UHGV virus genome: UHGV-1577189
Direction: 5' to 3' (one strand)
Length of the DNA stretch: 16,327 nucleotides
Source: a virus
The position numbers and the translations under genes were made by a program. The notes under the pieces are model-generated. The model saw only the letters and a list, made by a program, of their open reading frames with translations. It was not told the origin of the DNA and searched no databases. This document shows positions 1,448-15,368 of this stretch, one piece after another. Numbering within the stretch: the stretch's first letter is position 1; each line of letters begins with the position of its first letter.

Positions 1448-1492
1448 ATGTTCGCTCTTGCGTCCACGGAAAACCAACGTATAATGGGAGTA

Positions 1493-1575
1493 GTCGAGGC
1501 GCCCATGGTTAGTTGTTGGTTTTCCTTTCCGTGGATGTCGCAAGAAGCCCGCAGATTTATCTGCGGGCTTTTTGT
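1493..1575 (+). ncRNA. CopA-like antisense RNA candidate (copy-number control), antisense to the repA leader
   Basis: Sigma70-like promoter: -35 TTGCGT (1458-1463), 16-nt spacer, -10 TATAAT (1480-1485). Perfect 10-bp stem AAGCCCGCAG/CTGCGGGCTT (1545-1570) followed by TTTGTTT; position and orientation match IncFII CopA. Confidence 0.45.
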
Positions 1576-1762
1576 TTCCATATCTGGTCACTTTTCAACC
1601 AGACACCCACAATTATAACCACTTTACGTGGTTTTAAGAGAACTCTACCACAACACTTTCGGTCATGCACGAAGTCTCTCACTGATCGAACGATAATCCA
1701 CCAGTAAAAGGATCTAAATTGGATCTCGTTTTGCGAGCATCATACTACTGGCCTAACTCCAG

Positions 1763-2317
1763 TCAATGATTCCCAGCCGGAAACCTGCGGTAAAGCGTGG
1801 ATAAGGTAACATCGAAGATAATCGCTATCCGCTTACGTGAAACACCATTCGCAATAAGCCTTCCGATCTGTTCCCATTGCTCTGGTGCCAGCTTTGAGCG
1901 GCGTCCTCCTATCCTGCCGTTAGCCCTTGCCACCGCCAATCCTGCACGCGTTCTTTCAATCATATTTTCCCGCTCCATCTCTGCGACTGCACTCAGCATC
2001 GTGTAGGCAAAGCGGCCAATTGAAGTGCTAATTTTTATCCCTTCCGTAATCGAAATAAACTCAATGTCGTTTGATAAAAAATGGTTAAGTAAATCAACAA
2101 GATGAATCAGAGAACGCCCCATTCGGTCCAGCTTCCAGACAATAACCGTATCGCCCGGTCGTAACACCTTCAGTAGCTTATCAAGTCCTGGTCGTTTTGA
2201 TTTAGCACCGGATATTTTATCTTCAAAAATCCGGTCACATCCTGAACTCCTGAGCGCCTCCAGTTGTAATTCCAAATTCTGGTCAAAAGTTGACACCCTC
2301 GCATAACCATATTGCAT
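1763..2317 (-). CDS. Serine recombinase, resolvase/invertase family (likely plasmid multimer resolvase)
   Basis: 184 aa; N-terminal YARVSTFDQNLELQLEAL with catalytic-serine context and C-terminal HTH, typical of small serine recombinases. Confidence 0.85.
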   Translation of the reverse strand: MQYGYARVSTFDQNLELQLEALRSSGCDRIFEDKISGAKSKRPGLDKLLKVLRPGDTVIVWKLDRMGRSLIHLVDLLNHFLSNDIEFISITEGIKISTSIGRFAYTMLSAVAEMERENMIERTRAGLAVARANGRIGGRRSKLAPEQWEQIGRLIANGVSRKRIAIIFDVTLSTLYRRFPAGNH

Positions 2318-2339
2318 ACTTTCTAAACCACGATTGTTG

Positions 2340-2576
2340 CTAAAAGCGGGAAAAAATATCGTTCAGACGACACAGAGGCAATTCGCAAAAACCTCCTTTA
2401 TTGCGCAAGTGGTTTTTCCAGCGGTTTTGCGCCGCGCTGGGCTTTTTGCAAAAACCACAATCCATCATCCCGTAATATTTCATCAACCCCATCCGTCGGT
2501 TGCTGAGTCTCACCCACTGCCAGACGCCAGGAGCGTTTCTACGAACTAACAGAATCTTTGCTTTACGGTTTTTCAT
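2340..2576 (-). CDS. Small basic hypothetical protein (78 aa)
   Basis: ATG start with strong RBS AGGGGG 6 nt upstream; K/R-rich. It overlaps an inverted-repeat-rich region upstream of the resolvase, so it is uncertain. Confidence 0.35.
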   Translation of the reverse strand: MKNRKAKILLVRRNAPGVWQWVRLSNRRMGLMKYYGMMDCGFCKKPSAAQNRWKNHLRNKGGFCELPLCRLNDIFSRF

Positions 2577-2850
2577 CGTTTGCCCCCTGCTTTTCTGCCC
2601 TTAACACCATGCGAGAATCATCATCCAGCTCCCAATTGATTTCACCGCATTCTGCCATGACAAGATGCCAAACGAGTTGTGCGGCCTCGTTGGTTACATC
2701 ACGACCGCGATCATTGCCTACACGGCGTTTTGTTCCGTCACCTAAATCGCGCATTTTGGCCAACACGATGGTTTTTGATAGCGGTGAAAAACCAAGCTGT
2801 AGCCGTGCGGAATTACTCACTGGTTGCCCCCTGAATACGTTTAAACTCAA
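2563..2850 (-). CDS. Possible small hypothetical ORF, start uncertain (TTG at 2850 or ATG at 2754)
   Basis: Protein-like composition on the same strand as the flanking operon, but no clear start codon or RBS. Confidence 0.2.
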   Translation of the reverse strand: MSLNVFRGQPVSNSARLQLGFSPLSKTIVLAKMRDLGDGTKRRVGNDRGRDVTNEAAQLVWHLVMAECGEINWELDDDSRMVLRAEKQGANDEKP

Positions 2851-3505
2851 TTACCCATACCCACGGGTTAGATAGCCAGTTCTCTTGCCCGTAAATACCG
2901 CGCCAGATATCACCAAAGCCAACGCGATAAACAGCTTCCGGCGGTGTAATCTTGTACGTCGCCGGAGATGCGCCTTCCGCTTTAGCATCTGCCTCGCTCA
3001 TGTCATGCAGCCGTTCCACACGCACGTCGGTAATTTCCAGCAAAATACGCGAAGCCCAGCGCGGCATGTGAATTGATGGACGCCACCCGCCATCAAACTT
3101 TTCATTCACAGTGTGAGGTTTCCAGTCGGCATCATCGGGTATCGACCATAAGCCGTAATCACCCGGCTTTTGCTCACAACTGGCCCGATAAATCCTTGCT
3201 GCGTTCTTCTCATCGCCACGACAAAGGTTGTCGTTCCAGTCCACACTGCAACCATCCTCATTGCCTAATATCGCCCACGCCTCACGGACCCATATGCGAT
3301 CACCAACGTTACCGAACGGGCATAAACCATGTTCAGGTGCATCCATAACGTGGGTATAGACACCATTGCGTTTCTTTGTCGGTTTACGGATAACCAGGCA
3401 GTTATCGGCCCTGACATTTTTTACAGGTCGGCGAGTCTGCGTCTTCCTTCCTTCGAGGATGGCCCTAACCATATCGTCATTAAAAACAACACCACGTTCT
3501 TTCAT
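2813..3505 (-). CDS. Phage-associated hypothetical protein, possibly ASCH-like fold
   Basis: 230 aa; ATG with RBS AAGGTGG; N-terminal MVRAILEGRKTQTRR resembles the GxKxxExR-type ASCH signature from memory. Last gene of a four-gene overlapping operon. Confidence 0.55.
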   Translation of the reverse strand: MKERGVVFNDDMVRAILEGRKTQTRRPVKNVRADNCLVIRKPTKKRNGVYTHVMDAPEHGLCPFGNVGDRIWVREAWAILGNEDGCSVDWNDNLCRGDEKNAARIYRASCEQKPGDYGLWSIPDDADWKPHTVNEKFDGGWRPSIHMPRWASRILLEITDVRVERLHDMSEADAKAEGASPATYKITPPEAVYRVGFGDIWRGIYGQENWLSNPWVWVIEFKRIQGATSE

Positions 3506-3660
3506 TTAGAAGCCACCTTGTTCAATTTCCGGCGACAAGACACGCAATCATCAGGACTCTCAAAAGTGTCTGGCTCACGGTAATCACCAAAATACATCCA
3601 ACGGCCGCAAATGCTGGTTACTTCACCTTCATTAAAATAATGATGTTTATTCGCCTTCAT
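3502..3660 (-). CDS. Small Cys-containing protein (zinc-ribbon-like CxxC near C-terminus)
   Basis: Stop overlaps the next start (ATGA); CVSCRR motif. The ORF could extend to 3756, but that would overlap the upstream gene by about 66 nt. Confidence 0.35.
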   Translation of the reverse strand: MKANKHHYFNEGEVTSICGRWMYFGDYREPDTFESPDDCVSCRRKLNKVASK

Positions 3661-3689
3661 TGGCCTGACCCATCCGGCATTTTTCTTGC

Positions 3690-4055
3690 TCACTTCAACT
3701 CCTCCCGACGACGTTCCTGAAGCTCTAGCATTGCGGCTCGGAAATCCTGCCACCATTCCTCATCTGCAACGGGGGTGTTCCGCTCCAGCACCTTGTCCGC
3801 ATCGGCGATCAGGTTTGCCAGACTCTTGTCTGAAATCTTCGTTACCGGAGTCGTTGGTTGCTCAACCTGCCCGATAGGTTTTATCGTGCTCAAAAGGAGG
3901 CGACGGCGGGAAAGTGGTGCCCCACAACGACGGCCATCTTCCTTGCGATATGTTTCTTTCGGACCAACACACCAGGTTGTCGGCGTTTCGCGCAACTTCA
4001 CTCTTTTCTCACCATCATTGGTAATGATTATTCCGGTATGGGTTTTGATGCTCAT
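3690..4055 (-). CDS. Hypothetical protein (121 aa)
   Basis: ATGA-coupled to the upstream gene at 4052-4055; charged C-terminal helix-like segment; no family recognised. Confidence 0.5.
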   Translation of the reverse strand: MSIKTHTGIIITNDGEKRVKLRETPTTWCVGPKETYRKEDGRRCGAPLSRRRLLLSTIKPIGQVEQPTTPVTKISDKSLANLIADADKVLERNTPVADEEWWQDFRAAMLELQERRREELK

Positions 4056-4333
4056 GCCACAGCCCCTCTCAACGGCTTAACTTTGGCTAATAAGGTGTTA
4101 AACAACATGGAGTTAGGATTCATGCCAAATGGCAATTCCGGTTTAGCGGAGTAGTACAGGCAACCATTTATTTTCCTGGTTGTTATCTGTCCTTCGGCAA
4201 CCATGCTTCTCAGTCTGCAACGCATAGAGTTCTGCGACACACCAATGTGCTCCGCGATTACGTCCACTTTTGAACATGGGTGATCGGTCAGGAAATTAAT
4301 CACATCTTGGGGGTTAATAATTTTGCGTTTCAT
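4052..4333 (-). CDS. Putative winged-helix DNA-binding protein (about 93 aa)
   Basis: ATG at 4333 with RBS AAGGA about 10 nt upstream (the ATG at 4354 has none); first gene after an AT-rich promoter motif. Confidence 0.5.
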   Translation of the reverse strand: MKRKIINPQDVINFLTDHPCSKVDVIAEHIGVSQNSMRCRLRSMVAEGQITTRKINGCLYYSAKPELPFGMNPNSMLFNTLLAKVKPLRGAVA

Positions 4334-4380
4334 TGTCGAGGCGTCCTTATACATTTATATAAATATATAATTCTATATAC

Positions 4381-4398
4381 GGCGGGAGATATCCCGCC
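4381..4398 (-). terminator. GC hairpin downstream of the 4411..5478 gene, candidate terminator
   Basis: 7-bp stem GGCGGGA/TCCCGCC with 4-nt loop, followed on the minus strand by an AU-rich tract. Confidence 0.4.
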
Positions 4399-4410
4399 GT
4401 AGGCTTACTG

Positions 4411-5478
4411 TCAGGCTTTCAATAGCGATTCTTTCAGATATCGGGCATCAGCCAGGGCGTTTGGAGTAATCTTGCGAACCCATGCATTACGGGTTGGACT
4501 CCACTTAAAGGCGCGTGATTTAAGCAGCGAACGAATGTTTGCCTCTGGTTTGCCAGGGAAATAAAACAGGATGCGGTTATCCTCTGGATCTATCTCCATA
4601 GAAAAGCCGTCGTATTCTTCGCGCTGTGCTCCTGTTACAGACTTGACCGATTCAAGCTCCTTAATACGGCTCTGTAGTCGTTTGATTTCGGCCTTATTGT
4701 TGCTCAGTGCGTATGAAGGGAATCCGATGTGCCCACAGAAATCTCCGGCCAGTAACTCTTTGGCTTCGCTTTCTGTAAACCTGAGATCGATTAATGCAGA
4801 AAGCTGCTGTAATTGGTCTTTTTTGTATTTGCGAATGGCCTTATTTGCTGCCTTCATTTTGACGTGTGACTTCATGCAGCCTTGCAGCTTACGAAGCAAC
4901 TTAAATAGCGCATCAGGATCATCAGACGAAATTCCATTACGACCAACACCTGCGGCTTTGCTCTCGTAGTGTGATGCTTTACTTTCGCATTCAACAAACG
5001 CTTTTCTGAATAACGCATCAGCTTTAGACAAACGGCGGCGATGGCCTTTCGCGCTATAATGGTCAACTAAAATCGGCTGGCCTAACGGGATCACATCCAA
5101 CAGGTCATGCGCTCGCTTATGCGCTACCGCACCTTCTTTTCTGGCTTTTTCTGCACGAGCAATATATCGGGCAAGACGCGCGTTCTGGCGTTCCTGATAG
5201 GTGTTTACGTAATCATCTCCGCGCTGCTGCTGTTCAAGCCATGCTTTGCGCAGATCTTCTGTTACGTCCACCAGCTCCGCAGGGATACAACCAGTTTGGG
5301 CTTCATAAGAGTAACCATCCTCATAGATACGCCCATCGTCTTCAACAAAGAAAAAGGTTTCGTGCTCATCGCTTTTGACCATACGACCATTAACATGGCG
5401 TAATAGGTAGCCAGTATCAGTGCTTAACAGGCTGTTAGGGTTGTTGATCCAGTCAGAAATAATTACTTGTTTATTCAT
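4411..5478 (-). CDS. DUF3560-like domain protein (355 aa), function unknown
   Basis: ATG with RBS GGAGAAA; C-terminal half (GQPILVDHYSAKGHRRR, ISSDDPDALFKLLRKL, FKWSPTRNAWVRK) matches my memory of the DUF3560 family. Confidence 0.7.
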   Translation of the reverse strand: MNKQVIISDWINNPNSLLSTDTGYLLRHVNGRMVKSDEHETFFFVEDDGRIYEDGYSYEAQTGCIPAELVDVTEDLRKAWLEQQQRGDDYVNTYQERQNARLARYIARAEKARKEGAVAHKRAHDLLDVIPLGQPILVDHYSAKGHRRRLSKADALFRKAFVECESKASHYESKAAGVGRNGISSDDPDALFKLLRKLQGCMKSHVKMKAANKAIRKYKKDQLQQLSALIDLRFTESEAKELLAGDFCGHIGFPSYALSNNKAEIKRLQSRIKELESVKSVTGAQREEYDGFSMEIDPEDNRILFYFPGKPEANIRSLLKSRAFKWSPTRNAWVRKITPNALADARYLKESLLKA

Positions 5479-5484
5479 CAGATT

Positions 5485-5580
5485 TCTCCGGTTTAACCAG
5501 GGCGGGTATCGCTCGGTTTCGGGTATAACCTTAGGAAATTTTTTCCCACCTGTAAAGCACTTTTTATATAAATCTATAAT
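5485..5580. repeat. 96-bp promoter/leader module, copy 1 (3 mismatches to 14556..14651)
   Basis: Direct comparison of the two segments; lies immediately upstream of the start codon at 5478. Confidence 0.85.
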
Positions 5581-5647
5581 TATATATTTATAGATTTTCG
5601 ATGTTCCCGATGTCTACACACCATCAAAACAGCTCAAAATGACACTT

Positions 5648-6025
5648 TCACTCTCTTCGCTTTTTCAAATAGTCGACAACATACGCCCTGGCTTTTGCCA
5701 GCTTCCGGCGATACTGTCTGAGACTAAGAGAAAGGGCGTGGGCTTTATCAATATGCGGTGCATTTATGTCGAGGCCCCGAATCTCCCACGCCCCGTATTC
5801 AATTCGGACAACCAGCGCCGCAGTCTCATCAACTACCGTGAGGGCCGTCACAGCTCCCTCGATACTGGTTTCCAGTGAGTCATTTGGTGCGCCGCCCCCT
5901 CCGGTAAACTGGCAACGCGTAACCATCATCATTTCTAACATCGACGCGAAACCGCTACGGGCGTTGCAGCCATTGCGCACCCACAGCGCCCATAGCTCAA
6001 ACAAGCTATCCAGATCGCGTCTCAC
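5648..6025 (-). CDS. Putative antitermination protein Q-like (125 aa); identity uncertain
   Basis: GTG start with RBS GGGAG; N-terminal LFELWALW resembles the LExWGxW start of small Q proteins from memory. It is the last gene of the nin-like operon and sits directly upstream of a promoter/leader module, which is the Q position in lambdoid phages. Confidence 0.4.
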   Translation of the reverse strand: MRRDLDSLFELWALWVRNGCNARSGFASMLEMMMVTRCQFTGGGGAPNDSLETSIEGAVTALTVVDETAALVVRIEYGAWEIRGLDINAPHIDKAHALSLSLRQYRRKLAKARAYVVDYLKKRRE

Positions 6026-6028
6026 TGT

Positions 6029-6361
6029 TCAGATCTCCCGTATCGTGACGGGATAAAGCGCCTCTACCTGCTTTTTCTTCATGATGTAGACGTCTGTTCG
6101 CACACCTTTAGTGTCGACACAATCAATCGTCCCATCGTCATAAAACACCATGAAATCAAGTTTATAAACGACACCACCAGGCAGATGAAAAGGCACCTGC
6201 ATAAGAAACGTCACAACGCGGCCAGCTTTTCTCAGTAACTTCAGTTCGCAGTAGTAATCAGCCTCTTTTTTGCTATCAAAAGCGATATCATCGACAACCG
6301 TTTTTTTATTGCCGTATTTGCTTTTCCTGGTCGCTGGTTTGCGAAAGCCGGTATATCTCAT
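6029..6361 (-). CDS. DUF1064 phage protein (110 aa)
   Basis: KYGNKKT...FDSKKEADYY and C-terminal YP match the DUF1064 signature common in lambdoid nin regions; ATGA overlap with the upstream gene. Confidence 0.7.
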   Translation of the reverse strand: MRYTGFRKPATRKSKYGNKKTVVDDIAFDSKKEADYYCELKLLRKAGRVVTFLMQVPFHLPGGVVYKLDFMVFYDDGTIDCVDTKGVRTDVYIMKKKQVEALYPVTIREI

Positions 6362-6762
6362 TTGGTATCCCCTGGTACTTCACCAAGACTAAGATCAAAC
6401 CCAATTTCGTCTTTAACTGACTGCGGCAACAGCTCCCACGTCTGCGCACACAAAAATTCATCGGTGCCATAACGCTCAACAAAGCGAGCACAATTACTCA
6501 GGGGAGGGTGACGAACGGCGATATGCGGAGGCACGCGCCCACCACCAGGCACAACACCGCGATGATGTGGTGCGCACAATCCAAAGCTATGAAAGTGGCA
6601 ATTCTCATCAACGCTGCCGTAATCAGGATCGTGATGTAGCTCCGTCCACAGCTCTGGATTCTCAATTTCACGGCCATCAATAATGCAAGCTATGCAACCC
6701 ACGTGAGTGAGCACCGCTTGTATATAAAGTTTCTCTTTCTTCGTTGGTGTACGTCCGTTCAT
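6358..6762 (-). CDS. Cys/His-rich nin-region protein, possibly HNH/zinc-finger nuclease-like
   Basis: CIACxx...WTELHH...NCHFHSFGLCAPHH spacing resembles HNH-like metal-binding motifs; start and stop overlap neighbours. Confidence 0.55.
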   Translation of the reverse strand: MNGRTPTKKEKLYIQAVLTHVGCIACIIDGREIENPELWTELHHDPDYGSVDENCHFHSFGLCAPHHRGVVPGGGRVPPHIAVRHPPLSNCARFVERYGTDEFLCAQTWELLPQSVKDEIGFDLSLGEVPGDTK

Positions 6763-6995
6763 CAGCGCCCCTTACCATTGATAAAGAGGTTGAACTCGTT
6801 GATTAACTGGACATACATGCTTCTGGCCGCGTAGTTCTTTGCCAGCTCTTTACGGGATGAGATCCCGCAAAACTCACGCAGAATCACAGAGGCCTCAGAA
6901 CTGTTTGAAACGTTCTTCCCTGTTTTACTGGTCAGAAAGCGCCAGAATTGGGGATTCTGGCAATGCATCGCAGCACCGCGAACATAACTACTCAT
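6762..6995 (-). CDS. Hypothetical small phage-like protein (77 aa)
   Basis: Translationally coupled (overlapping start/stop codons) inside the operon. Confidence 0.5.
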   Translation of the reverse strand: MSSYVRGAAMHCQNPQFWRFLTSKTGKNVSNSSEASVILREFCGISSRKELAKNYAARSMYVQLINEFNLFINGKGR

Positions 6996-7507
6996 TGATG
7001 GCCCCCGTCATTTCTGGTGCTTTTCACCGTGCGGCTTCTTAAAAACCTGCCATCACGAACAACAGACACTTCTCGTTTACCCAACCTCATTTCACGGCGG
7101 TAACATTCAGAAAATGCCTCGTCCGGCATCATATAAATGCGACGCTTCGCCTCCGTATCCAGAAGGGAACGGCTTGGGGTTACATATAAAAACGACTCAT
7201 CAATAGGGACAAAACCACGAGCAAGAATTGCTGGCAGAATGCCAGGAAGAACGCAGAAAACAGCTCCACGATGCAGCAACATCTGGTACTCCATGACCTC
7301 CGTTATCCCCGTGACTACTGTTACGGTGTCACGTCTGTTACGGCTGGCAACCAGTCGCTGCACACGTCCAATTTTCTGATCTACAGATAGATGTTTGCTA
7401 TCGTTATCAATATGATCGATAACAAATCCTTTAATCGTTTGATCAAGGTAGTGCACCACCTGCGATTGAATCTGGTGATTATCACCAAAGAAGGCCAGAA
7501 TCATCAT
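6992..7507 (-). CDS. Hypothetical protein (171 aa)
   Basis: ATGA-coupled to the Cro-like gene; occupies the position where lambdoid phages carry cII/O/P; no family recognised. Confidence 0.5.
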   Translation of the reverse strand: MMILAFFGDNHQIQSQVVHYLDQTIKGFVIDHIDNDSKHLSVDQKIGRVQRLVASRNRRDTVTVVTGITEVMEYQMLLHRGAVFCVLPGILPAILARGFVPIDESFLYVTPSRSLLDTEAKRRIYMMPDEAFSECYRREMRLGKREVSVVRDGRFLRSRTVKSTRNDGGHQ

Positions 7508-7998
7508 TCCTCAAGCCTCCCAAGTGCTGAACGCCGGGCGTTGCTAATCTCCTTATGAATCAGCTCGATATCGCTGGAATCTTTATTCTTAAGCTCCAGC
7601 ACGGTAATCGCATCACGAACCTCTGAAACGGTTACGTGTGAGTGTTTCCAGCGAGCAATGAATCGCGGACCGCGTAGATTGCAACGCTCCGCAGGCATCC
7701 CCAGCTCAGAGAAAACCGCTTTCAGCCTTGATAAGCAGTTAACAGGGAGATTCCCTTTGATCTTGTTCTGCCGAACCGATGTGCCATCGCTACGCTGGCG
7801 CTGACGTTCGGCAAAATCTGCCGCCCATTGCTGGACGTTAATCCGGCCTTCCGAATACGCCACCAGCAGCGTCAGGTTATCCGCACGAGGGAATCTCTCG
7901 AAGCGATACCAGGCACCAATCAGTGATGACGTAAAGCCAAACTTTCTGGCAACACCAATTTGGCCTCCATTTTCGTCAACCCACTCCTGAAAGGTCAT
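7504..7998 (-). CDS. Cro-like/YdaS-type HTH protein with C-terminal extension (164 aa)
   Basis: ATG with RBS GGAG; N-terminal WVDENGGQIGVARKFGFTSSLIGAW is a YdaS/Cro-like HTH; divergent from the repressor across the operator cluster. Confidence 0.6.
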   Translation of the reverse strand: MTFQEWVDENGGQIGVARKFGFTSSLIGAWYRFERFPRADNLTLLVAYSEGRINVQQWAADFAERQRQRSDGTSVRQNKIKGNLPVNCLSRLKAVFSELGMPAERCNLRGPRFIARWKHSHVTVSEVRDAITVLELKNKDSSDIELIHKEISNARRSALGRLEE

Positions 7999-8017
7999 TT
8001 AACGAACTCCAGTTAAA

Positions 8018-8135
8018 ACCACGATATGTGGTATTAAAACCACATATCGTGAGTTTTTCAATGGGCGAAACAAAAAATAACCTTCTATTTGTGGTCCACC
8101 TCTCGTCTTACCATGTGAAAACCACTAAATGTGGT
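8018..8135. promoter_or_regulatory. Operator cluster between divergent cro-like and cI-like genes
   Basis: ACCAC-GATAT-GTGGT (8018-8032), ACCAC-ATATC-GTGAG (8039-8053, imperfect), ACCAC-TAAAT-GTGGT (8121-8135), all in A-rich context. Confidence 0.6.
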
Positions 8136-8172
8136 AATGTATAAATAACCCACCATTCACGATTGATGAGAC

Positions 8173-8829
8173 ATGAAAAGCAACGACGAGAACATCAAGA
8201 AAGAAATAGGTCTGCGCATTCAGACTCTACGGAAACAATCCGGCATGACTGCCGGAGATCTCCAGCAAGTCACTGGAATAGGCTTAAGCACCTTGCAGAA
8301 CTATGAGGCCGGATTAAGACAACCATCGATACCTGCCATCAAGAAAATCGCGCACGCCCTGAAAGCATCAGCGCCTTATATCGCGTGCTTAACAGATAAC
8401 CCGTTCCCACCCCAGAATACTAACGCTCCTGTTATTCCTGGGCTTGTAGCTATAAAAAATGACATAGCATCGCACGCCGGAGAAAAGCCAGTGCTGGCGA
8501 TAGAACAGGAGATTCTACGAAGCAAGAACATCAACCCATCGTCTCTGTCAGTTCTCCAGAGCAACGATGAGTTAATGTCACCAACAATATCCCCTGGCTC
8601 CCAAGTCCTGATTAATACAGACGATACAGAGATTCATGAGGGGATCTATGCCCTTGAAGACAGAAATGGCCTGGTTGTTTTGAGGCACTGTAGAGTCATA
8701 CCGGGTGACAATGCTGTTATGCTGTCAACCGAAAGGGATGCTGAAATGAACACTAAGCATCTGAATAACGAGGAATTTAAGCGTTATAAAGTTCTTGGCC
8801 GCGTAGTTAGTGTTGTCAACTGGTTATGA
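8173..8829 (+). CDS. CI-like phage repressor: N-terminal HTH_XRE plus C-terminal S24 (LexA-like) domain
   Basis: 218 aa; HTH LRKQSGMTAGDLQQVTGIGLSTLQNYEAG; C-terminal beta-rich domain with an Ala-Gly dipeptide (SHAGEKP) and conserved Lys (RYKVLGRVV); catalytic Ser context is atypical (ELMSP). Confidence 0.8.
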   Translation: MKSNDENIKKEIGLRIQTLRKQSGMTAGDLQQVTGIGLSTLQNYEAGLRQPSIPAIKKIAHALKASAPYIACLTDNPFPPQNTNAPVIPGLVAIKNDIASHAGEKPVLAIEQEILRSKNINPSSLSVLQSNDELMSPTISPGSQVLINTDDTEIHEGIYALEDRNGLVVLRHCRVIPGDNAVMLSTERDAEMNTKHLNNEEFKRYKVLGRVVSVVNWL

Positions 8830-8871
8830 TACACAGCACGGCGAAAGCCGTGCATTTCTACGCTCAAAAAA

Positions 8872-8886
8872 ACCACATTATGTGGT
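8872..8886. promoter_or_regulatory. Fourth ACCAC-N5-GTGGT operator (ACCAC-ATTAT-GTGGT) between the repressor gene and the next ORF
   Basis: Same palindrome family as 8018-8135; followed by TTGACA (8888-8893) and RBS AGAGG before the ATG at 8922. Confidence 0.5.
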
Positions 8887-8921
8887 TTTGACAACATGTA
8901 AAAGTATAAAAGAGGCTACGC

Positions 8922-9296
8922 ATGGAATTACATACAGCCAATAAAAATGAAACTCTGATCACTGCTGGAATCGAAATCCAAGCGTTGAACATAGCGATTG
9001 AGTGTATGTTATGCCAAATCATTGATAATGAGAAAGATATCGACTGGATAGAATCTATCCTTCATCTGGCATCAGAACAAAAAGTCTGCCTCAAAACGGC
9101 CTTGCAATACGATGTGCCAGCGGTATCGAAGCTGTGCCAGCCATTGATGGCATATAACAGGGCTATTATTTCTGTATGCCTCATGATTCTTGATGAAAAC
9201 ACCCCTCTTAGCGACCGCTCAGAAGCTGCTCTAACCCTCTCACGTAAACAGCGACAGCTAGCAAATCAACTGATATCAACGATAGCTGACCTCTGA
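8922..9296 (+). CDS. Hypothetical protein (124 aa) co-oriented with and downstream of the repressor
   Basis: ATG with RBS AGAGG; followed by a hairpin at 9301-9320; no family recognised. Confidence 0.55.
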   Translation: MELHTANKNETLITAGIEIQALNIAIECMLCQIIDNEKDIDWIESILHLASEQKVCLKTALQYDVPAVSKLCQPLMAYNRAIISVCLMILDENTPLSDRSEAALTLSRKQRQLANQLISTIADL

Positions 9297-9300
9297 CTGC

Positions 9301-9320
9301 AAGCGGGCTAACGCCCGCTT
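9301..9320 (+). terminator. Hairpin terminator candidate after the 8922..9296 gene
   Basis: 8-bp stem AAGCGGGC/GCCCGCTT with loop TAAC, followed by an A/T-rich tract. Confidence 0.4.
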
Positions 9321-9425
9321 ATATGATTATAGATTTATATAATTATATAAAACACTTTCCATCCGCCAAAAAGTTGGTTATGCTTACCTCGTTCTATAAA
9401 TATAGATTTATAGAATTATATAACC
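9321..9425. repeat. AT-rich repeat region upstream of parA (candidate centromere/operator)
   Basis: Two copies of ATAGATTTATA(T/G)AATTATATAA at 9321-9351 and 9394-9423; the same motif family recurs at 4354-4380, 5563-5597, 10099-10131 and 14634-14665. Confidence 0.5.
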
Positions 9426-9446
9426 AAACACATGGAGTCTCGACAA

Positions 9447-10100
9447 ATGACTATCTCTGTAGGTATTTTCAACGGAAAAGGCGGCGTAACCAAATCAACA
9501 ATTGCCCGTGCTTTAGCAGTTGCTTATGCAAAGGCTGGCTGGAATGTATGCCTGATCGATATGGATGTGCTTAACGGAACGGTAACGCGTTGGGTACAAC
9601 GCAGAATGGCCAACAATATCGAACCAGCAATCGCGGCGCAGCCGTGCGGCACACCATCACAAGTCCAGAAAATCATCGAATCAGAAGTATACGACCTGGT
9701 TATCGTTGATGGCGGTGCCTACGCATCTGAATCAGTACCGAAGCTATCTGAATTTCTGGATATGGTTATTTTGCCAACCCGATTCTCTACCGATGACCTG
9801 GAAACCACCGTTAACACTGCTCACGGCATCGTTAAAAAGGGTGTGCCAATCAAGAAAATTTGCATGGTGTTTTCCGGCGCGGCTGAAAATGAAGCTGACT
9901 ATATTGAAGCCCAAGAGTACCTGGCTAATACGCCATACTTTGTTGTCGATAAGTACATTCCCCACAAGCCAGCTCTGAGCAAAGCTCAGGATAAGGGCTT
10001 AAGCCTCATTGAATGCTCATACGTTGCGCCACGCAAAAAGGCAGACGACGTTATTCAGGGGATTATCAACCAGCTTGAGGCTCTGACTACTGCCGCGTAA
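9447..10100 (+). CDS. parA: ParA-family partition ATPase (small type Ib, no N-terminal HTH)
   Basis: Deviant Walker A GKGGVTKST; about 217 aa. ATG at 9447 is preferred over 9432 because GGAG lies 9 nt upstream. Confidence 0.85.
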   Translation: MTISVGIFNGKGGVTKSTIARALAVAYAKAGWNVCLIDMDVLNGTVTRWVQRRMANNIEPAIAAQPCGTPSQVQKIIESEVYDLVIVDGGAYASESVPKLSEFLDMVILPTRFSTDDLETTVNTAHGIVKKGVPIKKICMVFSGAAENEADYIEAQEYLANTPYFVVDKYIPHKPALSKAQDKGLSLIECSYVAPRKKADDVIQGIINQLEALTTAA

Positions 10101-10143
10101 TATATAATTATAGTTTTATAGATTTATATAAGAGGGGATACAC

Positions 10144-10392
10144 ATGGCCGCACCATCAAAACCACCAAAGAAGAACAGCAAAGGCGTACCGCCATCGATC
10201 GAACAACCGCAGGTTTTCGACCCGACTGAAACGCCAACCAGAACCAAATCAGGTGGGGCACAAATGGCGTTTAACGTCGACCCTGAATTTAAACGCGAGT
10301 ACAAAACGTTCGCCAGTTCAATGGATATGTCATTGAAAGAAGTGCTGACAAAATCTTTTGAGTTACTCAAGGCTCAATACAACCAGAAGTAA
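10144..10392 (+). CDS. ParG-like ribbon-helix-helix centromere-binding protein
   Basis: 82 aa, basic disordered N-terminus; C-terminal MAFNVDPEFKREYKTFASSMDMSLKEVL resembles the TP228 ParG RHH segment; RBS AAGAGGGG; directly downstream of parA. Confidence 0.6.
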   Translation: MAAPSKPPKKNSKGVPPSIEQPQVFDPTETPTRTKSGGAQMAFNVDPEFKREYKTFASSMDMSLKEVLTKSFELLKAQYNQK

Positions 10393-10454
10393 GAGAAGGT
10401 GACGGCCTCCAGCGCCAACTGTTGGCCGTCGCGACACAACAAGGGGAATTTGTT

Positions 10455-10604
10455 ATGTCCGAACAACAATATACACGGTTACTAAAAACTCGTCTAATAG
10501 ACCTCAAGCGACTCAAAGCTGGGCGTTTATTTGCCTTGCTATCAACCAGGCCAGAATGGGTACGTGAAGCAGTTCTGAAAGGTTTAATGCGTTCCAGCGT
10601 TTAA
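10455..10604 (+). CDS. Small hypothetical ORF (49 aa)
   Basis: ATG with RBS AAGGGGA 7 nt upstream; the track start at 10422 is a TTG. Confidence 0.3.
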   Translation: MSEQQYTRLLKTRLIDLKRLKAGRLFALLSTRPEWVREAVLKGLMRSSV

Positions 10605-10718
10605 ATGTAGCCATAAAAAAGGCGGGCAACCAACCCGCCTCATTAGAGGTCAACGTCTCTTAGAAACCATCAAATTCGTCATACCGCTTTTTCATATCAA
10701 CCCCGTATTGAAATCGTA

Positions 10719-10733
10719 ACCACATCTTGTGGC
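10719..10733. promoter_or_regulatory. Isolated operator-like site ACCAC-ATCTT-GTGGC
   Basis: Same ACCAC-N5-GTGG architecture as the immunity-region operators, but about 1.8 kb away, between two hairpins. Confidence 0.35.
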
Positions 10734-10792
10734 TCTTACGGTATATAAGCTACTGCAATGGTAAACAGCTATCAAATGCAGGTTGCAGTAAA

Positions 10793-10812
10793 AAAGGCCC
10801 CCGAAGGGGCCT
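10793..10812 (-). terminator. Rho-independent terminator for the small peptide gene
   Basis: Stem AGGCCCC/GGGGCCT with loop CGAA; a T-run follows on the minus strand. Confidence 0.5.
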
Positions 10813-10817
10813 AATCG

Positions 10818-10940
10818 CTACTTGCTGCTAATGTTTATCGTCACATTCAGAGCGTTATCAGTAATCTTCCAACCCTCCCCATGTGGCGTAAACAAAGCTC
10901 CAGTAACAACGATAAAAATACACATGTAGTATTTTTTCAT
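10818..10940 (-). CDS. Small hydrophobic peptide (40 aa: MKKYYMCIFIVVTGALFTPHGEGWKITDNALNVTINISSK), candidate type I toxin-like membrane peptide
   Basis: ATG at 10940 with RBS AAGGG 8 nt upstream (the track start at 11000 is TTG); Lys-rich N-terminus then a hydrophobic segment; terminator immediately downstream. Confidence 0.4.
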   Translation of the reverse strand: MKKYYMCIFIVVTGALFTPHGEGWKITDNALNVTINISSK

Positions 10941-11219
10941 TGTGTGGCCCTTACAGGCCGTTTCACGGCATCCCCACCGACGAAAATGACGCGAGAGCAA
11001 GCACGCTGTTTGTGCCTGCGTGGTACGGCAAGTGGATAATCCTTTCCTGAAAGTCAGTGCCCGGGTGCGAATCGGCGGAAAGGCCCCAAGCCATATTACA
11101 CGTCATACCCTTCATAATGAAGGAATAAAAAACGCTTTTATTACATGAGATTACACGTAAATAAGTTAAAAACCTTCATTTTGCATGAGCTAATGAGCTA
11201 AATTTTTTTATATGAATAG

Positions 11220-11352
11220 TGGACTATTCACCTCAGTTGGGTAAGAATGTAGTTGCTGTTTGTGCTTGCGTGGTTGTATTAGTACAACGACGTTATGCTG
11301 AAAGGACCGCGAATCCGATCAGCACGAAAGAACCGTCCTCAATAGGGCGGTT
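11220..11352 (+). ncRNA. Candidate small RNA ending in a rho-independent terminator
   Basis: Terminator ACCGTCCT-CAAT-AGGGCGGT followed by T7 (11325-11352); carries a 20-nt copy (11255-11274) of a sequence at 11005-11024; possible promoter TTGCAT at 11181-11186. Confidence 0.35.
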
Positions 11353-11429
11353 TTTTTGTTTCTGCCTACCAATAAACCCACGCTATGTGGTTGTCTCTGT
11401 TAAAATCCCTCTGTATTGACATAAATGCG

Positions 11430-11528
11430 CCATTGGTGGACACTTTCCGAGCCGTAGCAAAATCTACGGTCGGGATTGGAACCCCGATAATCATCATGGC
11501 GCATACCGCGTTAGCGGTTTTTTTATGC
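11430..11528 (+). ncRNA. Candidate c4-like antisense RNA of an immI-type antirepressor module
   Basis: Three consecutive hairpins (CCGTAG/CTACGG; TCGGG-ATTGGAA-CCCGA; ACCGC-GTTA-GCGGT plus T7) upstream of a small ORF and ant; the loop GATTGGAACC recurs in the leader hairpin loop at 11638-11647. Confidence 0.35.
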
Positions 11529-11689
11529 GTAAAGCACTGCTACACCCAAATTATGGTGGGGCGTGCGGGGGAGTCGTAAGACTCGCCGGATTCCATGGTG
11601 ACCGGTAGTTCCAACCCTGTACGTCTCACCACCCAATGATTGGAACCAGACGGTGGTGAGTATCCTTAACCTTTAAGGGAACTATCACC

Positions 11690-11881
11690 ATGACAAACTT
11701 ACCCCATGACTATTACGTCAACCTCGTAAAGATCCTTCTCAAGAAAGCCTCATACGCCGATAAATTCCGCCTGGCTGAAATCATCGAGCGCGAAGCTATG
11801 CGCATCGCCAGCAACGATAACGCTGTTTCTGACGCAAAAATCTCCCTCGTAACCAAAGTAGTTATGGGAGGTGCAAAATGA
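11690..11881 (+). CDS. Small ORF (63 aa) translationally coupled to ant (icd-like position)
   Basis: RBS TAAGGGA; its stop overlaps the ant ATG (ATGA at 11878-11881); preceded by a 9-bp-stem leader hairpin at 11625-11662. Confidence 0.45.
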   Translation: MTNLPHDYYVNLVKILLKKASYADKFRLAEIIEREAMRIASNDNAVSDAKISLVTKVVMGGAK

Positions 11882-13023
11882 AAACGCTTCCGACCGTTAA
11901 CACCCTACAGCCTATCCTGCATAACCAAATCCCTGTCATTACTACCGAGTTACTAGCACAGCTTTACGGCACTGAGCCGGTGCGTATTCGCCAGAATCAT
12001 CATGAGAACAAAGCACGTTTCGTTGAAGGGAAACACTTTTTCAAAGTTGTTGGTAATGACCTTAAAGAATTGCGGGTAGCTTTAAACTACTCTCAAAATC
12101 CAGTTTCACCTAAAGTCCGCTCCCTCATCCTCTGGACAGAACGCGGGGCTGCACGTCACGCTAAAATGCTCGAAACCGATCAGGCGTGGGATGTATTCGA
12201 ACGGCTGGAAGACTGCTACTTCAACCAGAACGCGCAAACGGCCGCGACCGTAACCGTCTCACCAAACAATGCTCGTGAGGTTGTCGATACGCTCAACGCT
12301 AAACCAATGTATTACATTAAGGTGTGCAACAACGAGCCACTCACAACCTCAGCCGATGTTGCCCAGGCATTCAGCACCACAAACAATTCCATCGTTATGG
12401 CCATCGATGCGTTACGCATTCCTCGCACAGCTGCGGCGCGTCACTTCTTTAAAGAGCAACGACCGCTGGAAGGAAGCGACCGCGAAATAACAATCTATCG
12501 CATGACAAAAGACGGATTTACCTTGCTCATGGAGAGCATCGACGGTCCAAGCGTGAAAGATATCAAGCTGGCCTACATTGAAGCCTTTAACGCTATCAGC
12601 AGCGTGTTAAAAACACAGTACGAGCGTGATCTGGCTAAACGACTATACCAGGAAAAAACGATTATCCGCGCGGCAACAGAGCATAATCGGCTATTAACGG
12701 AACCGAACTACAGGAAGGAACTAATCAAGGAGTTTGACAAGGCAACAGGGAAAACCAAAGCGGCGCTAAGTCTGCCAGCAATGACTCAGGAAAATGTGAT
12801 ATCAGCCTTACTTCTTGATCTGCTCAGAAACGCCAGAGCACTTATCAGCTTTGACGAAAACCTGAATCCTCAGCTCAAGCTACTACCACCGACAGGCAAA
12901 GTAGTCGACCAAGCAGAACACAACAGCATACTCAGCGTACTGGATGCAAACCTGCCAGCCAGGACACTACAGGATCTGATAAAAACATGTGCTGATAAGC
13001 TGGCACAGAAAAGCAGACCATAA
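11878..13023 (+). CDS. ant: Phage antirepressor Ant
   Basis: 381 aa; N-terminal ITTELLAQLYGTEPVRIRQNHHENKARFVEGKHFFKVVGNDLKEL and SLILWTERGAARHAKMLETDQAWDVFERLEDCYF match the antirepressor N-terminal domain; RBS GGGAGG. Confidence 0.8.
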   Translation: MKTLPTVNTLQPILHNQIPVITTELLAQLYGTEPVRIRQNHHENKARFVEGKHFFKVVGNDLKELRVALNYSQNPVSPKVRSLILWTERGAARHAKMLETDQAWDVFERLEDCYFNQNAQTAATVTVSPNNAREVVDTLNAKPMYYIKVCNNEPLTTSADVAQAFSTTNNSIVMAIDALRIPRTAAARHFFKEQRPLEGSDREITIYRMTKDGFTLLMESIDGPSVKDIKLAYIEAFNAISSVLKTQYERDLAKRLYQEKTIIRAATEHNRLLTEPNYRKELIKEFDKATGKTKAALSLPAMTQENVISALLLDLLRNARALISFDENLNPQLKLLPPTGKVVDQAEHNSILSVLDANLPARTLQDLIKTCADKLAQKSRP

Positions 13024-13028
13024 CTACA

Positions 13029-13060
13029 AGGGGCTACGGCCCCTTACTCTTTTCTCTCTT
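13029..13060 (+). terminator. Rho-independent terminator after ant
   Basis: Stem AGGGGC/GCCCCT with loop TACG, followed by a T/C-rich run. Confidence 0.55.
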
Positions 13061-13762
13061 ATCAACACCAGAGACTTTCTGAAAATCCTTTCGAATAGCG
13101 TCAGCGTCACGCGCCAAGCCCATACTCGAACGTGTCGCCATATGACGAAAATGATCAACTGCCGGAAACAAAGAAATAATGGACCCAATAGCTTGCAGCA
13201 AACTCGCTTTTCTACGCATCATAATTCCACCATAACCGATAGCCACCCTTCAGACACAACCCCCCCTCCCCCCATACAGGGTGCCCTTTACCGGAGTTCC
13301 GGCCCCTTCTCAAAAGCATCAAAAAAAGCTCGAGATCGAGTACCGGAACTCATGCCACCAGATAGCTCCACATCGTTTCCAATGCTTCGCCGCCGTGTGC
13401 GCCCTGTGGCCCACAATCATGCCATTGGTCGTCTGATATACCTTCTTCTGCTCATTGAGCACAGGCGAGTTGTCGCACTCCTGCCTTTCTCAGACTCGAC
13501 TTAGTTTAGATCGCTGTTCCTAGCTTGCGTCAGCACACTTTCCCCTTGTACGCATACCCGCGCGCCACTCCGCCCAAAAACACCGAACCCAACGAAGTGG
13601 CAAAGACAACGACGCGAGCGTGAGTCTGAAACAGGCACCAGTAAAAAAGGGGTTGCAGGCGCAAAAAGATTTGATTATCTTTAGACGCAAGAAAGCCGCC
13701 CCAATCAAGAGGTGTCTTTTTAAATCCAGCCTACCAAGCAAGATTTAAATTTCAGACTGAAA

Positions 13763-13790
13763 ACCGCCCGGCAAGGCGGTTTTTGTCTTT
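13763..13790. terminator. Bidirectional rho-independent terminator
   Basis: Stem ACCGCC/GGCGGT with loop CGGCAA; TTTTTG on the plus side and a T4 run on the minus side; lies downstream of the minus-strand HTH gene. Confidence 0.55.
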
Positions 13791-13832
13791 CTGGCGCTTA
13801 CATTACACCACCATAAAACGATCCGTAAAGGA

Positions 13833-14105
13833 TCATTTGATCCCTTGTTCCAATTCTGACGACACTTTAACCTTTTCCCATACAAGGGTTTGCAGCCTTA
13901 ACAGAATCGCATCTTTATCAAGGTGTGAAAGATCCTTAACCATATCGTCAAACGACAGAACGCGAATGGCCATCTCAATGACCCTCGGCGGCTCCCCCTT
14001 CTCATATCGCTTATATGTAGCCAACGATATCCCAAATTCTTCGGCGGCTCGCTCCTGCGTCCAGTTCATCCCACGACGCCATAATTTCAATTCATAACCC
14101 GTCAT
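13833..14105 (-). CDS. XRE-family HTH transcriptional regulator (about 90 aa)
   Basis: ATG at 14105 with strong RBS GAGGAGG; HTH WTQERAAEEFGISLATYKRYEKG; an 11-bp-arm palindrome lies immediately upstream. Confidence 0.7.
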   Translation of the reverse strand: MTGYELKLWRRGMNWTQERAAEEFGISLATYKRYEKGEPPRVIEMAIRVLSFDDMVKDLSHLDKDAILLRLQTLVWEKVKVSSELEQGIK

Positions 14106-14134
14106 AGCATCCTCCTCGCACAATATTAACACTC

Positions 14135-14159
14135 GCAAAGTGTCAAAATGACACTTTGC
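14135..14159. promoter_or_regulatory. Perfect 11-bp-arm inverted repeat GCAAAGTGTCA-AAA-TGACACTTTGC (operator/terminator candidate)
   Basis: Sits between the stop of the 14169..14549 gene and the RBS of the HTH regulator; a 14-nt half-site copy occurs at 5635-5648. Confidence 0.55.
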
Positions 14160-14168
14160 GCATTGTGT

Positions 14169-14549
14169 TTACTTAACGAGGAATAAAAATGGTTTATTGT
14201 TCGGCGGTGTAATCGGGGCTGGCTCGCTTTTGCTCATGCGATCAGTGTACCAGGCCAGCTCCTTGTCAAAGTAAGCCTGATTAAAATAGGCCATGAATGT
14301 AGTTTCAAATCCATAACGACCGCTAATACGCAGCATCTGATTGCCGTTCTCTGTTTCCAGATATACCTGGGCACGTTCCTGATTCTCCTTCAGCCAGGTT
14401 AAAGCCTCATCGCACGAGGACACACGGTACTCATCATCGTAGCCGTCATCGATGCGGCTTGAAGAAGAACGGCAAATCACGCCAACAGAACCAGCCAGGA
14501 TAGTTTGAATTTTAAGGAAAGCATTTTTGCGGATTTTAATCATGCTCAT
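14169..14549 (-). CDS. Hypothetical protein (126 aa) driven by the duplicated promoter/leader module
   Basis: ATG with RBS GGAGA in the conserved leader; no family recognised. Confidence 0.6.
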   Translation of the reverse strand: MSMIKIRKNAFLKIQTILAGSVGVICRSSSSRIDDGYDDEYRVSSCDEALTWLKENQERAQVYLETENGNQMLRISGRYGFETTFMAYFNQAYFDKELAWYTDRMSKSEPAPITPPNNKPFLFLVK

Positions 14550-14555
14550 CGGGTT

Positions 14556-14651
14556 ATCTCCGGTTTAACCAGGGCGGGTATCGCTCGGTTTCGGTTATAA
14601 CCTTAGGAAATTTTTTCCCACCTGTAAAGCATTTTTTATATAAATATATAA
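14556..14651. repeat. 96-bp promoter/leader module, copy 2 (3 mismatches to 5485..5580)
   Basis: Direct comparison of the two segments; immediately upstream of the start codon at 14549. Confidence 0.85.
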
Positions 14652-14672
14652 TTATATAATTCTATGAGCACA

Positions 14673-14695
14673 AAAAAGCCCCTTTGCAACAGGGG
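14673..14695 (-). terminator. Terminator candidate after the HigBA-like operon
   Basis: Stem AAGCCCC/GGGGCTT flanked by A6 on the plus strand, i.e. a T6 run following the stem on the minus strand. Confidence 0.5.
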
Positions 14696-14712
14696 CTTAT
14701 CATTCGTTCTGA

Positions 14713-15365: not shown

Positions 15366-15368
15366 TCC

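Follow-up and report, generated by a model that had tools for sequence, protein, structure and literature searches.

UHGV virus genome UHGV-1577189 is a sequence of 16,327 nt (hereafter the window, meaning the whole stretch of DNA analysed), which an original prediction had described as a 16.2-kb circular plasmid with a complete lambda-style repressor switch but no virion, lysis, integrase or phage replication genes. Its first 49 bases (positions 1–49) are not biological: they read ACGAGAT, the 8-nt index TCCTCTAC and GTCTCGTGGGCTCGGAGATGTGTATAAGAGACAG, which together form an Illumina Nextera i7 adapter, and every database match starts at base 50–52. Fused to the start of the contig, this adapter with its index is a contaminant of the public metagenome assembly ERZ652835. 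Because positions 50–104 recur with 100% identity at positions 16273–16327, a 55-nt k-mer overlap of the kind left by a circular path in a short-read assembly, the real molecule is a circle, measuring 16,223 bp once the adapter and the overlap are removed.

On this circle, a gene for a CI-like repressor is divergent from an early operon, and both are accompanied by an IncFII-type repA, by parA, by toxin–antitoxin loci and by an antirepressor module. As predicted, virion, lysis and integrase genes are missing: the list of open reading frames (ORFs) and searches of the proteins against Pfam and PHROGs revealed no terminase, portal, capsid, contractile tail, lysis module or integrase in the 16,223-bp circle, which does encode a serine DNA invertase (1763–2317, − strand). 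The evidence set out below indicates that the window is, with high probability, a circular mini-plasmid descended from a temperate myovirus of ~48 kb that persists in plasmid form and is a member of the p-p47 family. Its orphan lambda-style switch is a leftover of that phage and not a new control of plasmid genes.

Family of origin and the deletion junction

Megablast searches revealed 24 plasmids, all of 47–52 kb, nearly all from Escherichia coli and typed as non-mobilizable, with matches of 97–99% identity over at least 80% of the window, together with three Yersinia phages of 49 kb (vB_YpM_39/41/44) at 98.7% identity. These relatives encode terminase, portal, a ClpP-type protease, major capsid, tail sheath and tube, tape measure and baseplate proteins. 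Their tail-fibre region includes an invertible segment, and for lysis they have two holins and a GH108 endolysin. Apart from circular permutation, positions 50–16327 of the window are colinear with one contiguous 16-kb block of the relatives, at ~98% identity.

A preprint of August 2026 (bioRxiv 10.64898/2026.08.19.745698) describes a 'new p-p47 family' of 47–54-kb E. coli phage-plasmids, lists 118 members and gives a size range of 42–56 kb for the family. According to the same preprint, copy number in the family is set by RepA with CopA/CopT and drives beta-lactam heteroresistance; copy-up mutations map to CopA/CopT, and one copy-up mutant carries a single-nucleotide polymorphism (SNP) in an unnamed 'potential transcriptional regulator'. 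Its member p-p49 is transferred as phage particles, for which a tail gene is required, and is not induced by mitomycin C or ciprofloxacin. The words 'repressor' and 'immunity' appear nowhere in the preprint text.

Because CP032086 (ATCC 25922), an accession listed by the preprint, has the same gene order as the window, and the 48.5-kb plasmid of ATCC 25922 (NZ_CP009073) matches it at 98.1% identity, the window belongs to the p-p47 family by sequence. The record NZ_CP032086.1 itself (ATCC 25922 pL25922_3) is a size outlier in the preprint's list. It is linear, 94,204 bp long (about twice the 48.5-kb plasmid) and has frameshifts in several genes, and the record probably reflects a long-read assembly that is dimeric or duplicated, not a larger element. 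Among p-p49, NZ_CP009073/CP032086, pHN68-3 (NZ_CP141847) and vB_YpM_39/41/44, identity to the window is 97–99% and gene order is shared over the whole 16.2 kb, including the IncFII RepA, ParA, HigBA, CI with the early operon, the antirepressor module and the invertase. Unlike these members, the window lacks ~32.5 kb holding the packaging, head, contractile tail, tail-fibre and lysis genes, a tRNA and a methyltransferase; at 16.2 kb it falls outside the 42–56-kb range and cannot form particles. As the family's defining phage features are gone from it, the most fitting label is that of a phage-plasmid-derived plasmid. The lack of phage replication genes is, by comparison, normal for p-p47, since the intact phages likewise rely on IncFII RepA. 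The pSLy3 group was considered as the closest family and rejected, as pSLy3 belongs to the ~100-kb SSU5 supergroup.

The loss is marked by a hybrid crossover site (2382–2407, + strand), made of a genuine half TTCGCAAAAACC, a central TC (2394–2395) and a foreign half CTTTATTGCGCA. Positions 52–2395 match a stretch of the relatives that runs from the replicon past the invertase gene to the edge of the tail-fibre segment; from position 2393 onward the window matches the distal early region, ~16.7 kb away in the relatives, so that the two matches overlap by CTC only. The deletion removed ~32.5 kb. Across the junction reads the C-terminus of a 78-aa fusion ORF (2340–2576, − strand), which serves as a tag for the deletion.

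The invertase is of the Hin/Gin/Cin/Pin type (Resolvase domain, E = 3.6e-44, with a C-terminal HTH_7), and its gene is 90% identical in nucleotides to pin of phage SJ46. An identical protein adjoins the invertible tail-fibre segment in full-length relatives, and the exact protein was found on 20–50-kb contigs in 311 collection blocks. Beside the invertase gene, the relatives carry TTCGCAAAAACC-TC-GGTTTACAGGAA, the reverse complement of which (TTCCTGTAAACCGAGGTTTTTGCGAA) is nearly the gix sequence of Mu. It is a real crossover site because an inverted partner exists 3 kb away within the tail-fibre gene (20183(+) and 23230(−) in relative L001). The window retains a single hybrid site and no invertible segment, and so has no pair of 26-bp inverted sites. 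At the other side of the deletion, the intact quasi-site of the close relatives L003 and L001 reads ...ATCACTC-TC-CTTTAGTGCGCA and overlaps the Shine–Dalgarno sequence of an early-region gene; genuine site and quasi-site both carry the central TC and lie in direct orientation. One full-length plasmid, NZ_CP103765.1 (L004), which is not among the preprint's isolates, has no annotated invertase gene beside its tail-fibre genes, so that members of the p-p47 family may differ in whether they carry the invertase and the invertible segment.

We propose that a single deletion of ~32.5 kb took the tail-fibre inversion segment, the head, tail and packaging genes, the holins and endolysin, together with the distal end of the early region. 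Its endpoints would be the central TC of the Gin/Cin-type site by the element's own invertase gene and a TC in the ribosome-binding site (RBS) of the early-region gene. The invertase would have recombined its genuine site with the directly oriented quasi-site, excising the replicon-bearing segment as a circle, and the reciprocal 32-kb circle would have been lost because it had no replicon. Such an arrangement resembles the Cin/Gin/Hin inversion systems in placing a serine invertase beside a 26-bp site at the border of an invertible tail-fibre segment, but the outcome, as judged from the scar, would be excision of a 16-kb replicon instead of inversion.

A break at the dinucleotide cut by serine invertases points to excision made by the invertase. 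In a 48-kb genome, a random endpoint would come to lie 1 nt or less from the centre of such a 26-bp site about 3 times in 48,000 (~6e-5 per endpoint), and the partner carries the same central TC in direct orientation. This is the known rule for Cin, which is reported to use poorly matching 'quasi' sites chosen largely by their central dinucleotide (Iida & Hiestand-Nauer 1987). Several considerations weigh on the other side. By eye, ~8–9 of 24 flanking positions of the quasi-site agree with the genuine site, which is barely above chance; Hin/Gin-type invertases, with their classical invertasome, normally disfavour deletion between direct sites; and an identical junction would result if the site were broken and then mended by way of the 3-nt CTC microhomology, which is all that the partners have in common there. 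These points suit an illegitimate, microhomology-mediated joining, possibly after an abortive invertase cut or replication slippage, in place of a completed invertase exchange. Given the position of the endpoint and the nature of its partner, we consider such a joining unlikely.

Neither 5,426 complete E. coli genomes nor 72,556 plasmids contain the junction. Among these genomes and plasmids, no record covers at least 80% of positions 2330–2460, every match there beginning at 2393, and exact scans of JGI metagenome contigs and IMG/VR did not find the junction. An exact-protein look-up of the 78-aa fusion ORF returned nine contigs from six assemblies (ERZ652835, ERZ653858, SRR5156134, SRR5155787, SRR6028574 and SRR6028575), none of them longer than 20 kb; the longest-contig classes end at 10–20 kb. 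The source contig of the window was identified among them as NODE_303_length_16327_cov_24.28 of ERZ652835. All of the contigs that were fetched contain the junction and are 99.98–100% identical to the window, and two from other samples (L006 and L008) continue past the point at which the window closes. Judging by the record names, two assembly pipelines were involved (ENA NODE_ contigs and Logan contigs), both unbroken at the junction. Because the assemblies read unbroken through the junction, it follows that in those samples the deleted form predominates or stands alone. The original prediction had named a mis-assembled chimera of plasmid and prophage reads as the finding that would overturn it, and this is not what the contig is, as both junction and closure point recur in independent assemblies. 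Some caution is warranted: the six assemblies may come from only two studies, some may be re-assemblies of the same runs, and a full-length element, judged from assembled contigs alone, may co-reside in the same samples.

Such co-residence would be needed if the circle were a by-product continually re-made from a full-length phage-plasmid and not independently inherited, and full-length relatives do carry both an active invertase and the quasi-site. This is quite improbable, however, since the circle has repA, par and toxin–antitoxin loci, which is all that autonomous maintenance needs, and a minority form would not assemble as an unbranched cycle, whereas the junction is crossed without a break in all six assemblies and the nine contigs all stay at or below 20 kb.

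A satellite or hitch-hiker, as the original prediction had also suggested, would persist through packaging by a co-infecting full-length relative (for example, as a 48.7-kb trimer) or by blocking relatives. In its favour, three times 16,223 bp makes 48,669 bp, nearly exactly a full-length family genome (48.5–49.0 kb), and the circle keeps CI immunity, the antirepressor and a RepA replicon, the latter probably with a CopA-like determinant of incompatibility. But the size match may be a coincidence, the Pfam and PHROGs searches gave no helper-specific, capsid-redirecting or capsid-remodelling genes and no integrase, and no terminase-proximal DNA is present, although a packaging signal may escape a search by sequence alone. 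We rate this scenario as improbable as the by-product, if not slightly more so, and the satellite label was not sustained.

An assembly artefact, in which a fragment or chimera of an ordinary 48-kb phage-plasmid was wrongly circularised, might be suspected, since the contig comes from a short-read metagenome, has an adapter at its start and adjoins an invertible, repeat-flanked region. It is very improbable, as the junction does not lie in a repeat and overlaps by 3 nt, and the same junction and closure were recovered from other samples in assemblies whose names indicate different pipelines. The reverse direction, an ancestral plasmid backbone that later gained a myovirus module, draws on nothing more specific than plasmid-like replicon and partition genes and is extremely improbable in view of the half crossover site, the invertase with nothing to invert, the truncated and fused early ORF, the retained late-regulator candidate with late-type cassettes and immunity circuit, the ~98% identity to one block of full-length plasmids and phages, and the occurrence of the exact invertase protein on 20–50-kb contigs.

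Descent from a p-p47 phage-plasmid by deletion thus replaces the originally proposed distinct kind of plasmid, in which a phage switch would govern accessory genes. That proposal finds no support in a sequence ~98% identical to one contiguous block of ~48-kb phage-plasmids with head, tail and lysis modules. The sequence also bears the scars of a deletion, namely half a crossover site of the invertase, a terminal ORF that has been fused, and a late-regulator candidate left orphaned together with its promoter cassettes.

Repressor, operators and antirepressor

The CI-like repressor (8173–8829, + strand; 218 aa) matches HTH_3 (E = 4.5e-11) and PHROG 4, 'transcriptional repressor' (E = 1e-26). It had been described as a helix-turn-helix (HTH) protein with an S24-like domain and an Ala-Gly dipeptide, of which the HTH and the dipeptide stand: in a MAFFT alignment with LexA, lambda CI and UmuD, Ala-Gly falls at the cleavage site. 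The Peptidase_S24 match, in contrast, is sub-threshold (E = 0.0018, 18.4 bits versus a cutoff of 23.3), and the Ser/Lys dyad is absent, Ser being replaced by Glu and Lys by Arg; anchoring by eye on an M-x-P-T motif places Leu at the Ser position instead. A search of the window for LexA boxes gave six sites with one mismatch, compared with 4.55 expected, and no perfect site. Because the dyad is absent, LexA boxes are at chance level and no induction by mitomycin C or ciprofloxacin is reported in the preprint, self-cleavage of CI under SOS is unlikely, and the SOS-responsive switch once envisaged is not supported. An SOS-controlled antirepressor was also considered and rejected as unsupported, with LexA boxes at chance level.

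Divergent from cI, in the position of cro, the first gene of the early operon (7504–7998, − strand) encodes a protein of 164 aa. The divergent gene does head an operon, as predicted, but 'Cro-like' as a label lacks hidden Markov model (HMM) or structural support: there was no match in Pfam, NCBIfam (at loose thresholds) or PDB, and neither tblastn against phages nor a homologue search assigned a function. Its family is narrow, with 15 clusters, and the full-length relatives aligned are at least 71% identical; the AlphaFold2 (AF2) model is all-helical with a pLDDT of 56.

The palindrome ACCAC-N5-GTGGT occurs in the window four times perfectly (1618–1632, 8018–8032, 8121–8135 and 8872–8886) and twice with one mismatch, compared with 0.24 occurrences expected, and none of 200 shuffles reached six. 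Three operators had been predicted in the 174-bp gap between cI and the cro-position gene, where divergent promoters (assigned by hand) coincide with multiple palindromic operators; two of these are perfect, but the third (8039–8053, ACCAC-N5-GTGAG) is degenerate. The early promoter and its operators (8018–8061, − strand) comprise a −35 box TTGAAA (8061→8056), a −10 box TTTAAT (8038→8033), the degenerate OR2 with two mismatches within the 17-nt spacer and the perfect OR1 (8018–8032) just downstream. On the other strand, O3 (8121–8135) overlaps the −35 box and spacer of the presumed cI promoter (8121–8145, + strand), with its −10 box TATAAA at 8140–8145. The perfect O4 (8872–8886, + strand) follows a terminator-like hairpin after cI and precedes a gene for a 124-aa protein, and an operator-like site with one mismatch (11377–11391, + strand), which is perfect in L004, lies ~25 nt upstream of the −35 box of the antirepressor operon. 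At the repA promoter (1612–1632, − strand), the −10 box TATAAT (1617→1612) abuts the perfect operator 1618–1632, which occupies the place where, in plasmid R1, CopB represses the repA promoter. Operator positions, including that at repA, are conserved in three full-length relatives (L001, L002 and L004), and all perfect operator sites of the 48-kb relatives lie within the retained 16 kb.

The antirepressor module begins with an isrK-like RNA (11451–11524, + strand; RF01394, 70.2 bits versus a gathering threshold of 50) and a C4 antisense RNA (11549–11636, + strand; RF01695, 84.3 bits versus 45) that lies upstream of its target on the same strand. They are followed by a 63-aa ORF in the icd position and a 381-aa antirepressor (together 11690–13023, + strand), which overlap by ATGA; the antirepressor matches ORF6N (E = 3e-20) and Phage_pRha (E = 1.8e-12), and its gene has ~91% nucleotide identity to the Ant genes of Stx phages. 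A C4 segment CAUGGUGA is complementary over 8 nt to positions 11685–11692, spanning the ATG of the 63-aa ORF at 11690, and a second segment, GUUCCAA, is complementary over 7 nt to positions 11640–11646. Pairing of C4 with the start of the 63-aa ORF would follow the logic of P1 immI. The suggestion that the switch responds to an antirepressor is thus a likely one, given the ORF6N/Rha domains, the Rfam match of C4 and its complementarity to the ORF.

From these positions a circuit may be drawn. CI would bind the 15-bp palindromes: two adjacent sites covering the early promoter would shut off the early operon, one operator overlapping cI's own promoter would act there, and further operators flanking cI and the antirepressor operon would complete the set. 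The operator in the spacer of the repA promoter would link replication rate to immunity, with CI damping repA transcription in lysogeny and CI inactivation boosting replication. As CI without a Ser/Lys dyad would not cleave itself, its release would need the ORF6N/Rha antirepressor, whose translation would be held down by C4 pairing with the start of the translationally coupled 63-aa ORF, as in P1 immI. In the mini-plasmid, derepression could switch on only the early genes and raise repA transcription, yielding neither particles nor lysis. Set against this scheme, CI binding, repression of repA and antirepressor action are predictions from sequence; the call on the catalytic residues comes from a four-sequence alignment with unverified reference sequences; and a strict sigma-70 scan of positions 7900–9000 reported no promoter in the cI/cro gap, where promoters were assigned by hand.

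Overall, the switch combines a lambda-type repressor fold with logic of the P1/N15 type and resembles P1 and N15 more than lambda. As in the tripartite immunity of P1 and in N15, repressor operators are scattered over promoters that include that of the replication gene, and, as in P1 immI, the antirepressor operon is headed by a C4-family RNA that would pair with the start of a short upstream ORF. In N15, the CB repressor controls repA, and the antirepressor locus has a small RNA. Unlike P1, the window has a repressor of the lambda-type HTH_3/S24 fold and not P1 C1, an ORF6N/Rha protein as antirepressor, and 15-bp palindromes where the operators of P1 C1 are asymmetric; its replicon is of the IncFII type, in contrast to the RepA/oriR of P1 and the RepA of N15.

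Other genes retained on the circle

The plasmid RepA of the original prediction was confirmed as an IncFII-type initiator (599–1591, − strand; PF02387, E = 5.5e-44, 151 bits; NF040977, 232 bits versus a cutoff of 70), with gene callers placing its start at 1435 or 1579. A probable CopA-like antisense RNA (1462–1577, + strand) lies opposite the repA leader, as judged from a terminator on that strand, a GC hairpin GCCCGCAG-N6-CTGCGGGC followed by TTTTTG; a search of the leader against Rfam gave no CopA hit and only sub-threshold matches to terminator-bearing RNAs. The predicted ParA/ParG pair (9432–10392, + strand) was borne out for ParA, a Walker-type ATPase with CbiA, ParA and MipZ matches, but 'ParG' lacks HMM or structural support, the label for the 82-aa partner deriving from its position and sequence pattern, including a ribbon-helix-helix-like C-terminus. 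An AT-rich box (approximately TATAGATTTATATAATTATATAA) recurs in six intergenic regions (4347–4381, 5564–5598, 9319–9353, 9392–9426, 10100–10134 and 14636–14670). parA has two copies upstream of it, and a third separates it from the 82-aa gene; the box may act as a centromere or operator for the partition protein, or as a common promoter element.

A HigB/RelE-type toxin (15012–15365) and an HTH antitoxin (14713–15012) form a pair (14713–15365, − strand) with Gp49 and HTH_37 matches, annotated as RelE/ParE in the relatives. A ryfA-family RNA (10790–11088, − strand) matches RF00126 over its full length (134.6 bits versus a gathering threshold of 80). This accessory locus has a small hydrophobic ORF within it (10818–11000) and looks like a type I toxin–antitoxin locus of the TimP/TimR kind. 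The locus sits in a segment that differs among family members, and positions 10624–10788 have no match in L001 or L002. Together, RepA with its probable CopA-like RNA, ParA with its small partner, HigBA, the ryfA-type locus and the immunity circuit would make up the phage's complete set for maintaining lysogeny, kept by the deletion.

The early operon contains six genes whose stops and starts overlap or abut from 7998 down to 5648, as predicted. After the 164-aa protein come proteins of 171 and 77 aa (6762–7507, − strand), which match only PHROGs of unknown function. The protein first described as Cys/His-rich (6358–6762, − strand) is a Ref-family RecA-dependent nuclease (PF16786, E = 1.6e-11), and the DUF1064 assignment of the next gene (6029–6361, − strand) was upheld (PF06356, E = 6.8e-19).

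The last protein of the operon (5648–6025, − strand; 125 aa) had been called Q-like, for which there is modest fold support: its AF2 model (pLDDT 77) has phage 21 Q as the top Foldseek matches (probability up to 0.94, E about 0.3). Against the label, there is no Pfam match, the NCBIfam PA0613-family match is far below its cutoff (21 bits versus 100) and a profile search against PDB gave only a non-significant HTH match. We treat it as a candidate late regulator with a predicted sigma-region-4-like/Q21-like fold. Its target may plausibly be a ~125-nt cassette in which an AT-rich box and an 85-nt leader are followed by an RBS; the cassette is conserved up to the ATG and precedes three unrelated genes. 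One copy (5479–5600, − strand) lies downstream of the Q21-like gene and extends to the ATG of a DUF3560 gene, and another (14550–14670, − strand) lies upstream of a 126-aa gene (14169–14549); the third, found in the relatives (L002 46129–46259; L001 44068–44198), heads a cluster leading to the terminase and packaging genes, so that two of three copies are kept in the window. A riboswitch or attenuator in the 85-nt leader was considered and dropped, the leader being not unusually structured (z −0.69).

The DUF3560 protein (4411–5478, − strand; 355 aa; PF12083, E = 3.7e-31) may be a replication-associated protein of the early region; its residues 173–351 match a PHROG annotated as primase (phrog_19458, E = 3e-36). 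Distal early-region genes (2563–4354, − strand) encode DUF7446 (85 aa), a 230-aa protein with a PmgT-like segment and proteins of 52/84, 121 and 93/100 aa, the last matching a PHROG annotated as MarR-family. Positions 2393–3322 are 91–98% identical to parts of P1, P1-like plasmids (the pmgT region) and other E. coli prophages, and such occurrence in hundreds of genomes marks them as a mosaic module exchanged among phage-plasmid families. Between cI and parA, a 124-aa protein (8922–9296, + strand) has no family hits, and PADLOC reported no defence systems among ten proteins of unknown function.

Precedents and implications

P1-like phage-plasmids are described, from comparative genomics and without a defined mechanism, as turning into plasmids by loss of phage genes (PMC10879196). 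The window is alike in that a phage-plasmid became a plasmid through phage gene loss, but it comes from another family, shows a single clean deletion with a site-specific endpoint and no sign of acquired oriT or conjugation genes, and has shed its whole virion and lysis complement instead of scattered genes. Small circles that hold only a replication and regulatory region and are inherited as plasmids offer a second comparison. Among these, lambda-dv, mini-P1 and mini-N15 are mini-replicons made or selected in the laboratory, and lambda-dv lacks cI and runs on Cro/O/P, whereas the window is natural and keeps repressor, antirepressor, partition and toxin–antitoxin genes. New here are a 16.2-kb derivative with an invertase-site scar and a regulatory map of the p-p47 family.

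Rather unlikely, although worth stating, is a further scenario in which the circle, far from being a dead end, is a selected 'immunity plasmid'. Through its retained CI and operators, its RepA replicon with the probable antisense-RNA determinant of incompatibility, its partition genes and its two toxin–antitoxin loci, it would shield its host from lytic infection and establishment by homoimmune p-p47 phage-plasmids; being one-third of the genome in size, it might travel as trimers in helper capsids, and invertase excision would be a recurrent, built-in route of plasmid shedding.

Descent by deletion from a p-p47 phage-plasmid has a practical consequence, namely that 16-kb metagenome contigs like the window should not be scored as novel plasmids or satellites. 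The window would represent a natural, sequence-resolved case in which a single step turned a phage-plasmid into a plain plasmid, with the tail-fibre invertase acting on a quasi-site as the likely tool. It also yields a first sketch of p-p47 wiring, comprising a putatively non-cleavable CI, operators at the early, cI, repA and antirepressor regions and a P1-like c4–icd–ant module, which would explain the lack of DNA-damage induction in the family. Control of repA by CI, if true, would make it understandable that these phages do without a separate replicon for the lytic phase, and may account for the copy-up SNP in the preprint's 'potential transcriptional regulator', in a family whose copy number is clinically relevant because it drives beta-lactam heteroresistance.

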